64,000 nt of DNA from an uncultured Acidobacteriota bacterium (lineage in GTDB: Bacteria > Acidobacteriota > Blastocatellia > RBC074): assembly GCA_963796275.1 (NCBI GenBank), contig CAWCKY010000001.1, forward strand, positions 256,001 through 320,000, in the 5' to 3' direction. The notes under the pieces are model-generated. The model was not told the DNA's origin and did no database searches. It was given only the letters and a program-made list of their open reading frames with translations. A program made the translations under genes and the position numbers. Below are positions 5,349-12,670 of this stretch, in pieces (position 1 is the first letter of the stretch; every line of letters starts with the position of its first letter).

Positions 5349-7796
5349 CTATCCGGTCACCGGCCCTTCCGCGGGCACAGTGCCTGACGGCGGCTGCTGC
5401 CAGACCGGAGCCGCCATTTCTAGATTTGTTGGCGGAATGCGTTCGAGAGCTAATTGCAATACTTCATCCATACCGTCCACGAGGTTGATTTGTATGGCAT
5501 CGAGCACTTCCGGAGGGACATCGCTCAGGTCCTTCTCGTTCTCTTTGGGCAGAATGATCATGGTCAGGCCGATGCGGTGAGCCGCCAGCAGCTTCTCTTT
5601 CACTCCGCCGATCGGGAGGACTTTGCCCCTCAGCGTGATTTCACCGGTCATCGCTACTTCTTTATGGACCGGGACCCTCGTCAATGCCGAAGCCATCGCG
5701 GTGGCCATCGTTATTCCGGCTGATGGGCCGTCTTTCGGGATAGCGCCTTCCGGCACGTGCACGTGCAGATCGTAGTTTTTGTGGAGGTCGGTTGGGATGC
5801 CCAGTTCCGCCGCGCGCGACCTGATGTATGTGATTGCGGCGTGCGCCGATTCCTGCATGACATCGCCCAGCTTGCCGGTGAGCGTCAGCTTGCCTGAGCC
5901 TTCGATAAGCGTGGCTTCAATCTGCAGCACATCGCCGCCGACTTCGGTGACGGCCAAACCGTTCGCCAGGCCCACTTCGCTCCGTTCCGTCATGCGCTGC
6001 GATCGATATTTCAAAGGACCAAGCATCTTTTTGACCGCCGCGCCATCGACCACGTAATGGAACTGATCCTCTTCACCGCCATCTTTATCGGTCAACTGCA
6101 CCACCTGGCGAGCCACTTTGCGGCAGAGCGATCCGATCTCGCGTTCGAGATTGCGCACACCCGCCTCGCGCGTGTAATTTTCGATGATCGTCTTGATTCC
6201 CTCGTCGAGAAACTCCACCTGCGCGTCCTTCAGTCCATTGCTTTCCGTCTGTTTCCTGACGAGATGCCGCTTGGCGATCTCCATCTTTTCGCGCTCCGTG
6301 TAACCTGCCAGCCTGATGATCTCCAGCCGGTCCTGCAACGCCGGCGGGATGGTATGCAAAACGTTGGCCGTCCCGATGAACATGACCTGCGACAGGTCGT
6401 ATTCGACATCGAGATAATGATCGTGAAATGTGTGGTTCTGCTCGGGGTCCAGCACCTCCAGGAGTGCGGCCGACGGATCTCCGCGGAAATCCGAGCCTAA
6501 TTTGTCCACCTCATCGAGCAGGATGAGCGGGTTGATTGTGCCGGCCTTCTTCATCATCTGGATGATCTGTCCGGGGAGAGCGCCGATGTAAGTGCGGCGA
6601 TGCCCGCGGATTTCCGCTTCGTCGCGCACGCCGCCCAGCGAAAGCCGCACGAAATTTCTCCCCGTGGCTTTTGCGATCGATCGGCCGAGCGATGTCTTTC
6701 CGACGCCGGGCGGGCCGACGAAACAAAGGATCGAGCCGCGCGGCTTCTCGACGAGCTGGCGCACAGCCAGGTATTCCAGGATGCGCTCTTTAACTTTTTC
6801 GAGCCCGTAGTGATCGGCCTCCAGGACTTCCTGGGCGTGCCGGATATCGCGGATCTCCTCGCTTCGCTTATTCCACGGAACGTTGAGCAGCCAGTCCAGA
6901 TAGTTGCGCGAGACGGTAGATTCGGCTGACATCGGCGGCATCTGCTCGAGCCGCTTCAACTCGTTGATCGCCTTTTCGTACGCCTCCTGCGTCATCCCCG
7001 CATCGTCGATCTTCTGCCGCAACTCCTCGAATTCGGCACGTTCGTCCTTGCGCCCCAACTCCTTGTGGATGGCCTTGATCTTCTCGTTTAGATAGTACTC
7101 GCGCTGCTGTTTCTCCATCTGTCGTTTGACGCGCGTCTGGATGGTCCGGTCTACATTGAGTTTGTCTATTTCGATCTCGAGCACCTCGATCATCCGCAGC
7201 ATCCGCTCGTAGGTCGAATAGGTCTCGAGCAATCCCTGTTTGTCCTCGATCTCGAGCTTCATTCTGTCGGCGAGCTGATCGACCAGCTGCCCCGGATCGT
7301 TGGCCCGCAGCGCCGCCTGTATCTGCTCGGGATTTCCCTCCTGCGCCAGCTTCATGTACTGCTCGACCAGCGAAACGACGCGAGAAACGAGCGGAGCTAT
7401 CTTCTTGTTGTTCTCCGCCACGACGGGCGCGCGACGCAGAGTCGCGAGATAATACCCGTCGCGCTCCTCCACCCGAACTGCGCGCGCTCGCTCCCTGCCC
7501 TCTACCAGGACCTTAATCGTCGATTCTTCCGGCTTGCGGAGAAAATTTTTGATAATGGCGAGCGTTCCCACCTGATAAATCTGATCGGGAGTCGGGTCTT
7601 CGACCGTGGCGTCGTGTTGGGTCGCCAGAAAGATAATACGATCCTCCGTCGCCAACGCCTCTTCCAGAGCCCGCACCGATGAGGGACGGCCGATATTGAA
7701 GGGCGCTTTCGTATGCGGAAAGGCGACAATATCGCGAATAGGAACCATCGGATATTGGACTACATCGCTCGGTGTACCATCGTGGAATTCTTGCAT
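5349..7796 (-). CDS. lon: ATP-dependent protease La
   Basis: GPPGVGKTS Walker A; [10 protein letters not shown]; PKDGPSAG catalytic Ser; GGVKEK. Confidence 0.99.
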
Positions 7797-7967
7797 CGTT
7801 GCCTAGACCTCGGAATTATGGGGCTATTAATGAACGAGAGCTATTTCAATGGAGTTAGGAGAAGTTAAAAAGGGCAATAATTTGCAAAAAAGGCAAAAAG
7901 CCTGCAATTTTGTTTCAATTTGCCCTTAATGCCTCTTCTGCTTCCCTTTTTACCTTTGAGCTCTATT

Positions 7968-9197
<1,230 letters not shown>

Positions 9198-9305
9198 CTT
9201 GCGGCCTCCACCTTGGGTTCATATATTTGCATTACGGATGATTACCTTTAGGATGATTACGTTTGATTGATGTTTATGATAAACAAGTGTCCGACTGCGC
9301 GCAAG

Positions 9306-9722
9306 CTATCCTCCCAGACCGGGGCTGGGACCGGACTTGAGTATTTCGCATGCGCGTATGCATTTATCGCATATCCGCGCGTCGATGCCCGGGAAAAGGC
9401 GCTCTCCCTGTTGATTGCTGCGGTCATGGTTGTTGAAGCTGCAGGCATTGGTCCCGCTCAGAGAGTCGCCGAGAATTTTCTTATACCACGGCTGTTCGAT
9501 TTTCGGCGGGCTCATTCCCATCTCGCGATAGTCGTGCAGGAGTTGCACGCAGACATCAACGCATTCATCGCAGATATAACCCGAGTGTCCCTCGAAGAGA
9601 CGTGCGACTTCACCATAGGCGAGGCCGCAGAATGAGCAGCGCAAAACCTCTCGCTGCCCTTGTAAGTCCATCGTCCCGATGTAGTTATTTAGCGAATTGG
9701 AAGGGGAATTGCCGCTGTTCAT
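9306..9722 (-). CDS. Stand-alone protein with two tandem ClpX C4-type zinc-finger domains
   Basis: LRCSFCG...YICDECVDVC and a degenerate ACSFNNH...RICDKCIRAC; co-oriented between clpP and clpX. Confidence 0.85.
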   Translation of the reverse strand: MNSGNSPSNSLNNYIGTMDLQGQREVLRCSFCGLAYGEVARLFEGHSGYICDECVDVCVQLLHDYREMGMSPPKIEQPWYKKILGDSLSGTNACSFNNHDRSNQQGERLFPGIDARICDKCIRACEILKSGPSPGLGG

Positions 9723-9743
9723 AATATTTTTCTTCTTAAACTA

Positions 9744-10346
9744 TTATTCGCGGTGTTTGATCACCTGATCGATGATCCCATATTCCTTAGCCTGACTGGC
9801 CCCCATAATCCGGTCCCGTTCGACATCGCGTTCGATCGCTTCTACCGTCTGCCCCGTATGAAATGCGAGGATTTCATTGAGACGTTCGCGCAATCGCAGT
9901 ATCTCTTCCGCCTGAATTTTAATATCCGTCGCCTGCCCTGATATCCCGCCCGCAGAGGGTTGATGGATGAGAATTCGGGAATTCGGTAGCGCGAACCGCC
10001 TGCCTTTGGTCCCGGCAGCGAGCAGAACGGCGGCCATCGATGCGCACTGCCCGATACAGAAGGTCGTTACCGGGCACCTGACAAACTGCATCGTGTCATA
10101 GATCGCCATTCCGGCAGTGACGGCTCCGCCCGGCGAATTTATATAAAGCGATATCTCGCGATCGGGATCTTCCGATTCGAGGAAGAGCATCTGTGCCACG
10201 ACGAGGTTCGCGATAATGTCGTCGATCGGCACTCCGATGAAGATGATATTGTCTTTGAGCAGACGCGAGTAAATATCGAACGCGCGCTCGCCGCGCGCCG
10301 TCTGCTCGACGACCATTGGCACTAAATGAGCGTTTGGATTAATCAT
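9744..10346 (-). CDS. clpP: ATP-dependent Clp protease proteolytic subunit
   Basis: [20 protein letters not shown] (Ser), IHQP (His). Confidence 0.99.
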
Positions 10347-11701
10347 ACAGCTTCCTGTTCTTCGGTCTTCGTTTCAGTCTGATTTTCAATATCCGGTTCT
10401 TCACTGAGTTCTGTTAATGTGACCTCGGCGCTTTCTGTAATGACCCCCAGCGCCTTTTGATTGATCAACCTGCTCTCGATACTAGAAAGCGACTCTTCCT
10501 TTGTCAAGCGCGCTTTCAGTTGTTCGTATCGTTCGCCTCTCTCGTGCGCCATCCGCGCGATCTCTTGATCGATTTCCTCCGGCGTTGCTTCGATCCCTTC
10601 GGCATTTGCGATGCGGGCGAGCACGATATAAGTCCGCATATCGGCCACCGCTTGCGCGCGCAAACCTTTCATCTGCTCTTCCCAGTTCATCGCTCTGATC
10701 GATTCGGGCGAATATCCCCGGCGCATCAGGTCGTAGCTGAACTCGCGCGCCAGCTGGGTCGCCTGCTCATCGACCAGCGAATCGGGCACCTCGAAATCGT
10801 ATCCGCTGATGACCTGCGACAGGAGCTCATTGCGCAATCTCATATCGGCATGAAGTTCGGCGGTTCGATTGAGGTCTGCGTTTATTTCCTCGCGCAGCTG
10901 TTGGAGGGTCTCGCGCTCGCCGTATTCCTGGGCAAATTCGTCGTCGAGTTGGGGCAGCTCCAGTTTGCGAACGGCGACTACATCGGTGGTGAAGTCGACG
11001 CTCTTTCCCGCCAGCCTTTTCGTTCCGAAGTTTTCGGGATAATTTACGCGAAACTCGCGCTTATCGCCCGCTTTGACGCCGCGCAGGTTTTCGTTGAACT
11101 CAGCTTGCACGTCATCGGACCCCAGTTTGATCTGGGCGTCATCGGTTTTAATGGCTTCGGCATCCGGTTCATCGACGAATTTACCGGTGAGATTGACCGA
11201 AACAAAATCGCCGTCTTCCGAGGGGCGGTCTTCGATCGGAATGAATTCGGCGGAATTTTCGCGCCACCGCTCGAGGGCCGCGTCGACATCTTGTTCGGTT
11301 ACGCGCGCCAACGGCTTATTTGCTTTCAGCCCTTTGTAAGGTATGAGCTCGAAGTCGGGCAGGACTTCGATGCTCGCCTTGAACCTGAGCGGTTCGCCTT
11401 CATCGAATTTGACTTCGCCAATGTGGGGTTGTCCGATGATATTAAGATTGCGATCGACGACGGCGTGTTGTAATGCGTGTATCATCAGGCGCTCGAGCAC
11501 ATCGTCTTTGACCTCTTTAGCGAAGCGTTGTTTGACAACTCCGCGAGGCACATGGCCGGGGCGGAAGCCGGGCACGCTAACTCTTCGAGCCAAATTCTCG
11601 TAGGCTTTCTCGAACTCCGCTTTCACTTCGGCCGCGTCAACTTCGATACTCAGATCCTTCTTTGATTGCGAGATGTCCGCGACGTCAACTGCCAATTTCA
11701 A
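10343..11701 (-). CDS. tig: Trigger factor
   Basis: [10 protein letters not shown] signature and FKBP-like domain; TTG start after AAAGGCGG; overlaps clpP by 4 nt. Confidence 0.96.
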
Positions 11702-11903
11702 CTTAATTCCGCCTTTCTTCTTTATTGATTTCTCCGTATCTCTTTCTTCGCGCCCGTGCCGCAGTGGCTGATCTCGGTGGTTCGAAGTAGTAGGCAAGGA
11801 TGTAATATGGGGAAGCATTAGCGGATCGAATCTCGTCAAAGAAACTTTTCAATCGCACCTCATGCGCATCTCAACGTCGCTTGCGCTCCCCCGTACTGTA
11901 TAG

Positions 11904-11986
<83 letters not shown>

Positions 11987-11991
11987 AGATC

Positions 11992-12059
11992 ATTGCTACT
12001 CTGATTGCTACTCTGATTGCCACTCTGATTGCCACTCTGATTGCCACTCTGATTGCCAC
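11992..12059. repeat. 12-bp tandem repeat ATTGC(C/T)ACTCTG, about 5.7 copies
   Basis: Read directly: two ATTGCTACTCTG, three ATTGCCACTCTG and a partial copy. Confidence 0.95.
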
Positions 12060-12139
12060 ACGATAGCAAGCCGATAAGTAGAGAGTCAGAGAGACTAACA
12101 AATTTCGCATGGTGGCGCAACCAATGCGCACGAAGCGGT

Positions 12140-12168
12140 TTGACAGCGACTTGCGTGCAACCTATAAA
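12140..12168 (+). promoter_or_regulatory. Sigma70-type promoter of yqeY
   Basis: TTGACA-17 nt-TATAAA. Confidence 0.65.
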
Positions 12169-12214
12169 CTAATGGCACATTCCGAATGACGATCAATAAG
12201 AGGGGGGGATTGCG

Positions 12215-12670
12215 ATGACATTCCTGGATCGGATCAACGGCGACCTGGTGGCCGCAATGAAGAATAAAGAGGCCGAGCGCCTCTCGACCCTGCGCATGGT
12301 GAAGACCGCCATCAAGAACCGCGAGATAGAGAAGATGTCGCCAATCAGCGACGAAGAGGCGATCAAGATATTGCAGTCGCTCGTCAAGCAGCGGCGCGAT
12401 AGCATTGAGCAATATAAACAGGGCGGTCGCCCGGAACTCGCCGAAAAGGAAGCGGTCGAGATCAAAATCATTGAAGAGTATCTACCCGCCGCCTTAGACG
12501 AAGCTGCGATCATCAAAATCGTCGAGGAAGCTATCGTTCAGACCGGCGCCAGCTCGATGAAAGACATGGGAAACGTCATGAAAGACGTCATGGCCAGGCT
12601 CGCCGGGCAAACCGTCGACGGTAAAGCAGTCAATCAAATCGTCAAGTCGAAGCTGGGAGATGCCGGCTGA
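12215..12670 (+). CDS. yqeY: GatB/YqeY domain protein
   Basis: [19 protein letters not shown]...[22 protein letters not shown]...YLP...KDMGNVMK. Confidence 0.95.

Follow-up and report, generated by a model that had tools for sequence, protein, structure and literature searches.

ClpX has a zinc-binding domain (ZBD) that works as a dimer, and two studies describe this dimer as the docking site of SspB-type tails (PMC12373786) and of RssB (PMC7226468). When supplied in trans, the isolated E. coli ZBD inhibits the RssB-mediated breakdown of sigma-S by ClpXP (PMC7226468), and E. coli trigger factor binds the hydrophobic face of the ZBD with a Kd of 12.8 uM (PMC7804408). ClpXP choice is also redirected by anti-adaptors (IraD, IraM, and IraP for RssB; YirB for YjbH), which are reported to be small proteins that bind the docking component and not the protease. 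They are a class defined by activity only, with no shared sequence. To our knowledge, ClpXP adaptors and anti-adaptors are known from a handful of model bacteria, and none is derived from ClpX itself. We likewise know of almost nothing on ClpXP substrate choice in the Acidobacteriota, which are abundant in soil.

The window analyzed here is a stretch of 64,000 nucleotides from an uncultured Acidobacteriota bacterium of the class Blastocatellia. Between its clpP and clpX genes, the minus strand encodes a 138-amino-acid (aa) product with two ClpX-type ZBDs (positions 9306 to 9722), which we refer to as ZZ. Copy 1 shares its family and fold with the ClpX ZBD, having a beta-hairpin and a helix along with the CxxC...CxxC zinc site, and the two copies of ZZ are predicted to form one unit, as the ZBDs do in the ClpX dimer. 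Unlike ClpX, ZZ lacks the AAA+ module, carries two ZBDs per chain, has C-x4-H and not CxxC in copy 2, and presents a different surface on copy 1.

The activity that we propose for ZZ would be analogous to that of the isolated E. coli ClpX ZBD in trans, where the free dimer is reported to vie with ClpX for adaptor docking (PMC7226468). That dimer, however, is a laboratory fragment with the ClpX surface, whereas ZZ is natural, separately encoded, diverged, and single-chain. ZZ is also small like the anti-adaptors and, by analogy, may redirect ClpXP choice in a similar way. It has no sequence or fold relation to them, and the anti-adaptors are reported to bind the body of the adaptor, are stress-induced, are encoded at separate loci, and include none derived from ClpX.

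The ZZ gene is conserved and under purifying selection

We delimited the ZZ coding sequence by its open reading frame (ORF), which runs from an ATG to a TAG, and by a match to Pfam zf-C4_ClpX in two stretches. In minus-strand order, the neighborhood reads tRNA-Leu (11903-11986), tig, encoding trigger factor (10343-11839), clpP (9744-10346), ZZ, clpX (7968-9197), and lon (5349-7796, from the ORF list). The gap between the clpP stop and the ZZ start is 21 nt (9723-9743), and that between the ZZ stop and the clpX start is 108 nt. The clpP gene directly upstream of ZZ (Pfam CLP_protease, 3.4e-81) is a single match across the whole genome, and clpX matches Pfam AAA_2, zf-C4_ClpX, and ClpB_D2-small, with its own ZBD intact. 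A first-pass annotation of this DNA had described a co-oriented 138-aa ORF beginning 21 nt past the clpP stop, and its coordinates and peptide strings agree exactly with ours.

Two observations concern the upstream end of this neighborhood. The longest tig ORF (498 aa, TTG start) begins with about 50 residues that have no counterpart in relatives, and tblastn matches begin at residue 51; the true tig start is probably further downstream than this TTG. Just upstream of tRNA-Leu, a 12-nt tandem repeat, ATTGCCACTCTG, is present in 5.7 copies with 98% matches (11992-12059).

A word-indexed protein search returned 117 ZZ homologues of 75 to 242 aa, and those that are named carry the name ClpX C4-type zinc finger protein [Blastocatellia bacterium]. 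Within the window's own order of Blastocatellia, which consists of a single family with 17 genera and 87 genomes, we found ZZ in 85 genomes, including 55 of 55 high-quality genomes, and in 16 of the 17 genera. Completeness is 78% and 67% for the two genomes of the order without ZZ. Among 401 evenly sampled Acidobacteriota, full-length matches occurred in only 3 genomes, all from the window's family; for the other 398, 36 of them from the same class, there was no full-length match, and only their ClpX was matched. Four genomes are flagged as unpublished (G462, with locus L037, among the 85, and G152, G049, and G024 among the 398), and dropping them shifts any affected count by at most 1. A profile search against 1.84 billion representatives yielded 8 clusters at an E value of 1e-30 or lower. 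By these searches, the ZZ family forms a clade of its own, and its gene order shows a constant position behind clpP.

Among loci of the order, ZZ identity ranges from 36 to 78%. We estimated pairwise dN/dS by the Nei-Gojobori method, with medians over pairs with dS between 0.2 and 2, and the values are rough since most pairs are saturated. The median for ZZ overall was 0.12 (136 pairs), which is purifying and not neutral. Within ZZ, the linker had the highest value (0.36), followed by copy 2 (0.18) and copy 1 (0.086); ClpP and ClpX gave 0.064 and 0.040. ZZ is a real protein-coding gene under purifying selection. One ZZ sequence (genome G424, locus L080) ends early, with an altered C terminus after the third ligand of copy 2, which could reflect a frameshift or a sequencing error.

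A metatranscriptome signal for the ZZ region was present at small shares (0.05 to 0.09) in four soil runs from one study. Contigs from these RNA libraries, 90 to 97% identical to the window, cover positions 9192-9371 (all four runs), 9369-9504, 9484-9597, and 9568-9686. These contigs are weak evidence for ZZ expression; they come from a relative of the window genome, and DNA carry-over is possible.

Domain content and zinc sites of ZZ

We searched ZZ for known domains and obtained a single Pfam family above threshold, zf-C4_ClpX (PF06689), at 64.1 bits (cut-off, 27; E value, 1.1e-17). The match falls in two stretches, as expected for a tandem, and the Pfam scan found no AAA domain, in line with the first-pass description of two ClpX-type ZBDs without an ATPase. 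In a genome-wide scan, copy 1 scored 52 bits and copy 2 scored 21.3 bits (E value, 0.003) against PF06689. Taken alone, copy 2 (residues 94 to 138) reached 24.9 bits (E value, 1.9e-5), slightly below the cut-off and over profile positions 8 to 34 only, because its first zinc knuckle is altered and is missed by the profile. The canonical copy 2 of relatives scores fully, and in the ZZ copy at locus L075, copy 2 is the best stretch (profile positions 2 to 36). By BLASTP, copy 1 and the neighboring ClpX had 16 identical residues out of 30 (E value, 5e-7).

ZZ is not a ClpX unfoldase, with 45.8 bits against the TIGR00382/NF003745 models (cut-off, 370.75) over positions 5 to 49 of 414 only. It is also not an SspB-type adaptor, as the Pfam scan gave no PF04386 match above threshold. 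A weak search for a longer, fused form of ZZ found none.

The protein can be divided into four parts. An N-terminal tail (residues 1 to 25; 9648-9722, minus strand) is variable and poorly conserved, and it is predicted to be disordered, with pLDDT below 50 for residues 1 to 23. ZBD copy 1 (residues 26 to 66; 9525-9647, minus strand) has a canonical C4 site of C29, C32, C51, and C54. The linker (residues 67 to 92; 9447-9524, minus strand) is 26 to 30 residues long across the family and contains an invariant W79 in a PWY motif, with a short helix at residues 79 to 83 in the model. ZBD copy 2 (residues 93 to 131; 9330-9446, minus strand) has a putative C3H site of C94, H99, C118, and C121. Across 106 aligned ZZ sequences, the four copy 1 cysteines are invariant, as are F31, G37, R41-L42-F43, G45, W79, F96, and G106, and at least 90% of the sequences conserve P78, Y80, C94, H99, D100, C118, C121, and C125.

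We considered whether the linker (RPP...PWYKKLFG) descends from the ClpX linker between ZBD and AAA+ module (RPPLPKP...YVIGQ) and found no support for this, as the hhalign alignment stops just past the ZBD helix. ClpX docks on ClpP through an [LIV]-G-[FL] tripeptide, and this tripeptide is absent from the linker in ZZ family sequences.

Copy 1 has the CxxC...CxxC pattern of ClpX; copy 2 in the window does not and instead reads C94-x4-H99...C118-x2-C121. Three genera (g233, g236, and g240), along with the stray copy at L075, have the canonical copy 2 form CSFCG, and the remaining genera have C-(S/G)-F-(N/T/A)-x-H, which is longer by two residues. The counts are 14 CxxC and 36 C-x4-H among 50 loci and 8 CxxC and 107 C-x4-H among 116 database proteins; in one odd database member, P0021, a Gly replaces the first Cys of copy 2. 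Wherever the second Cys is missing, a His is present at +5, as seen in all 36 such loci and all 107 such database proteins. In an unrooted maximum-likelihood tree, one branch splits the two forms with support of 100/98, and a single change accounts for both. Every ClpX ZBD and every other ZBD protein has CxxC, and by this outgroup comparison the C-x4-H form is the derived state. The His is fixed across three subclades despite differing neighboring residues, which makes it a putative replacement ligand. This agrees with the earlier suggestion that a His may stand in for the lost Cys of copy 2.

ZZ is linked to clpP, and clpX probably forms a separate unit

We compared gene order across 50 loci from 49 genomes. 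In 49 of these, clpP lies directly upstream of ZZ, at a median distance of 48 nt (range, 6 to 131 nt), and tblastn placed tig upstream of clpP in 48, the other two being a contig end and a stray second copy. The clpX gene lies downstream of ZZ in 40 of the 50. In one genus (g236), tig, clpP, and ZZ are intact in 9 of 9 loci, with clpX absent for at least 3.9 kb downstream and located on other contigs. ZZ had been described as inserted between clpP and clpX; its place directly after clpP held up, but the gene is tied to clpP and not to clpX, which has moved away in g236.

The lone exception to the clpP linkage is a second ZZ copy in genome G417. This diverged copy of the CxxC type (locus L075, 3986-4402) is away from clp genes, and it adjoins three paralogous proteins of about 330 aa with signal-peptide-like N termini.

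A promoter-like element, CTTGCG-N-TTGTTTATCAT, lies between ZZ and clpX (9276-9305, minus strand), beginning immediately after the ZZ stop and preceding the clpX start by 108 nt. From a comparison of ZZ-clpX spacers, the consensus is CTTGCG-N(14-20)-T[AT]TNAT, mostly CTTGCG...TTGTTTAT(C/G)AT. The element is present 90 to 234 nt upstream of the clpX start in 43 of 49 loci (among L034 to L092), and it is kept at the relocated clpX of g236 in 8 of 8 cases. Its -35/-10 shape suggests that it is the clpX promoter. A terminator and promoter scan of positions 7700 to 12300 found nothing above shuffled expectation and also missed this conserved element.

The terminator scan found no terminator between clpP and ZZ in the window genome, and the 21-nt spacer there has no hairpin followed by a T run. 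In three relatives (L050, L046, and L047), the clpP-ZZ spacer contains a GC-rich hairpin followed by a T run; this terminator-like structure could attenuate ZZ relative to ClpP. We place ZZ in the clpP unit, given the separate promoter-like element of clpX and the relocation of clpX in g236. ZZ would most simply be the last cistron of a tig-clpP unit, with clpX forming a unit of its own.

The spacer between ZZ and clpX is 88 to 265 nt long across relatives. We rejected a ZZ-clpX read-through fusion: ZZ and clpX are in the same frame in the window, yet the spacer holds an extra in-frame TGA, and spacer lengths in relatives are not divisible by three. The clpX leader contains 1.9 copies of a 15-nt direct repeat, GGATGATTACCTTTA (9236-9264), and the motif CAATGCA, which occurs about 25 to 35 nt before the clpX ribosome-binding site, recurs in the spacers of relatives. 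Both are possibly regulatory.

Predicted fold of ZZ

We modeled ZZ with AlphaFold2. The full-length model had a mean pLDDT of 66 and a pTM of 0.56, with pLDDT below 50 in the N-terminal tail (residues 1 to 23), at residues 85 to 90, and in the C-terminal tail. Modeling of the core alone (residues 24 to 134; alignment of 115 rows) gave a pLDDT of 84.5, with 80.6 to 84.5 across five models, and a pTM of 0.77. Both copies have the same strand-strand-helix order by DSSP, with a hairpin and a helix in both models. Given the pTM of 0.77, the mutual placement of the two ZBDs of about 40 residues each appears to be confidently predicted. The model is consistent with the two ZBDs packing as one compact unit, a single-chain counterpart of the ClpX ZBD dimer, and this predicted arrangement fits the single-chain pseudo-dimer that had been suggested from the sequence.

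Copy 1 superimposed on the E. coli ClpX ZBD structures 2ds5 to 2ds8 by Foldseek with TM scores (target) of 0.82 to 0.91 and an rmsd of 0.5 to 0.7 over 38 columns, at about 53% identity. VIA-align matched ZZ to 2ds5_A with a Z of 4.8 and 43 residues aligned. Searches for a two-domain match, by Foldseek against the PDB and by VIA-align against 48,161 chains, returned single ZBDs only. A predicted complex of ZZ residues 22 to 138 with two copies of ClpX residues 1 to 60, run without controls, gave ipSAE values of 0.01 and 0.00 against a mark of 0.32; these values count neither for binding nor against it.

The surface of ZZ differs from that of the ClpX ZBD

The ClpX ZBD is near-frozen in the window's order: among 25 distinct N termini, the core varies only between K and R at one position and between A and V near the helix end. 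Across the phylum, 34 ClpX ZBDs have K16, Q18, I25, A26, and V30 without exception. Copy 1 of ZZ has L34, E36, F43, E44, and G48 at these positions, each of them conserved in ZZ. Copy 1 has the stretch LGEGEVARLFEGx, in which RLFEG stands where ClpX has KLIAGP. By median net charge, copy 1 is at -4, copy 2 at +1, and the ClpX ZBDs at -2.

Judged by these residues, ZZ is a diverged ZBD pair with its own surface and not a plain copy. Since copy 1 has conserved residues of its own where ClpX ZBDs show no variation, it probably does not recognize exactly the ligands of the ClpX ZBD. This makes less likely the earlier idea of a pure mimic that sequesters the same ligands.

Other ZBD-only proteins

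ZBDs of the ClpX type also occur without an ATPase elsewhere, often in tandem, in proteins that are unnamed or named after the domain. Our profile search found two-ZBD proteins of 111 to 136 aa (P0130, P0139, P0144, P0145, P0150, P0165, and P0176) and four-ZBD proteins of 216 to 254 aa (P0124 to P0128). Overall, ATPase-free ZBDs recur in twos to fives, with two the commonest number, either alone or fused to unrelated enzymes. The fusions (P0221, P0183, P0135, P0245, and P0155) include ornithine/aspartate carbamoyltransferase with two ZBDs, a sigma-54-type AAA+ module with three, TPR arrays with two and with five, and a glyoxalase-like domain with two. Three phage families (phrog_6797, phrog_12435, and phrog_5259) have one ZBD stretch each. 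In another Acidobacteriota family, genome G057 encodes an independent two-ZBD protein of 125 aa (locus L102, 1255-1632), with clpP and clpX not nearby.

Database names of these other proteins, where they exist, refer to the domain only, and the ESM Atlas likewise has only clusters named after the domain. We found no study of stand-alone ClpX ZBD proteins in the literature covered, which mostly leaves out subscription journals. From the profile matches, ZBD-only and ZBD-pair modules are widespread, and the two-ZBD architecture is not unique to the ZZ family. The other multi-ZBD proteins differ from ZZ in having unrelated linkers and all-canonical CxxC sites, whereas ZZ is fixed after clpP. What sets the ZZ family apart is its constant position in the clp locus, its occurrence in 85 of the order's 87 genomes, its zinc-site switch, and its testable link to ClpXP.

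Proposed role of ZZ and alternatives

We tentatively favor a role for ZZ as a trans modulator of docking at the ClpX N-domain, competing for or re-sorting ClpXP clients. ZZ would be made together with ClpP and, acting in trans, would target the system for docking at the N-domain of ClpXP. There it would bind tethering motifs of adaptors or substrates that otherwise dock on ClpX ZBD dimers. Bound clients would be withheld from ClpXP or re-sorted, in the manner of an anti-adaptor or decoy with its own ligand preference, and substrates recognized at the pore would be left unaffected.

Several observations argue against a simple decoy. The surface is altered, and a search of the whole genome, at 94.7% completeness, gave no match to the SspB family; the best-known adaptor that docks on the ZBD would thus not be among the sequestered ligands. 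An inhibitor that is always co-expressed with the protease would also need a further layer of control, and we identified no such control over ZZ.

The altered surface gives weight to a second explanation, which we regard as possible but doubtful, that ZZ is an adaptor or auxiliary receptor. It would dock on ClpX, either via heterotypic contacts between ZBDs or at the AAA+ ring, and its own diverged ZBD surfaces would bring in specific substrates, which would broaden the specificity of ClpX and not block it. A conserved copy 1 surface that differs from the ClpX ZBD is what would be expected for a new ligand specificity, the invariant PWY motif of the linker could serve as a docking element, and ZZ is strictly co-located with clpP and clpX. 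The ZBD pairs fused to enzymes and TPR proteins also look like a portable interaction module. However, the predicted compact packing would leave no free ZBD face for a dimer-type pairing with the ClpX ZBD, and the almost invariant ClpX ZBD gives no sign of co-adaptation with a ZZ that evolves as fast as its identity range indicates.

Set against the trans modulator of docking that we favor, it seems unlikely that ZZ has a job apart from ClpX docking, as a zinc- or redox-responsive protein or a generic zinc finger, whose position next to clpP is a leftover of its origin from the 5' end of clpX. Zn-Cys sites are redox sensitive, and the Cys-to-His swap in copy 2 alters the chemistry of the site. 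The second copy in G417 is away from any clp gene, the independent tandem-ZBD gene in G057 is not clp-linked, and ZBD pairs are fused to proteins without a Clp connection. Against these points, ZZ has stayed behind clpP in 49 of 50 loci and across 16 genera, even where clpX is gone, and this would be hard to account for without a functional or expression link.

The persistence of ZZ with tig and clpP when clpX moves (9 of 9 g236 loci) could also point to a factor aimed at ClpP or trigger factor, for instance one that binds trigger factor or the ClpP surface, which we consider quite unlikely. The affinity of E. coli trigger factor for the ZBD (PMC7804408) would be in its favor, but that study reports no binding of trigger factor to ClpP. 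A ClpP-directed factor is also disfavored by the lack of the docking tripeptide in the linker. The kept linkage is equally well explained by shared transcription with clpP.

Finally, ZZ lies immediately upstream of clpX and resembles its 5' end, but a decaying duplication of that end, or a spurious ORF, is so improbable that we dismiss it, because orthologues, conserved synteny, and purifying selection refute it: both copies are conserved and frames are open throughout, a read-through extension of clpX would meet the in-frame stops and variable length of the spacer, and the first-pass annotation had likewise read the open ORF as something other than a fresh duplication scar.

Implications for ClpXP in Acidobacteriota

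The trans modulator that we favor has a further-reaching version, which we hold to be possible rather than probable: a protease regulator built from the protease's own docking domain. ZZ would here be a single-chain ClpX N-domain dimer, coexpressed with ClpP as a decoy or sorter, in which the Cys-to-His switch tunes the zinc site or its redox behavior so that stress frees the clients.

A conserved, ClpP-coexpressed, single-chain ZBD pair would be a simple and directly testable new form of ClpXP regulation. The clean switch from CxxC to C-x4-H amounts to a natural experiment with the ZBD zinc site. ZZ would also give a first way into the ZBD-only proteins and ZBD-pair fusions of metagenomes and phages, which are many and unstudied. 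If the further-reaching version is true and other ZBD pairs act alike, ZBD pairs would be a general, unrecognized currency for entering or escaping degradation by ClpXP.
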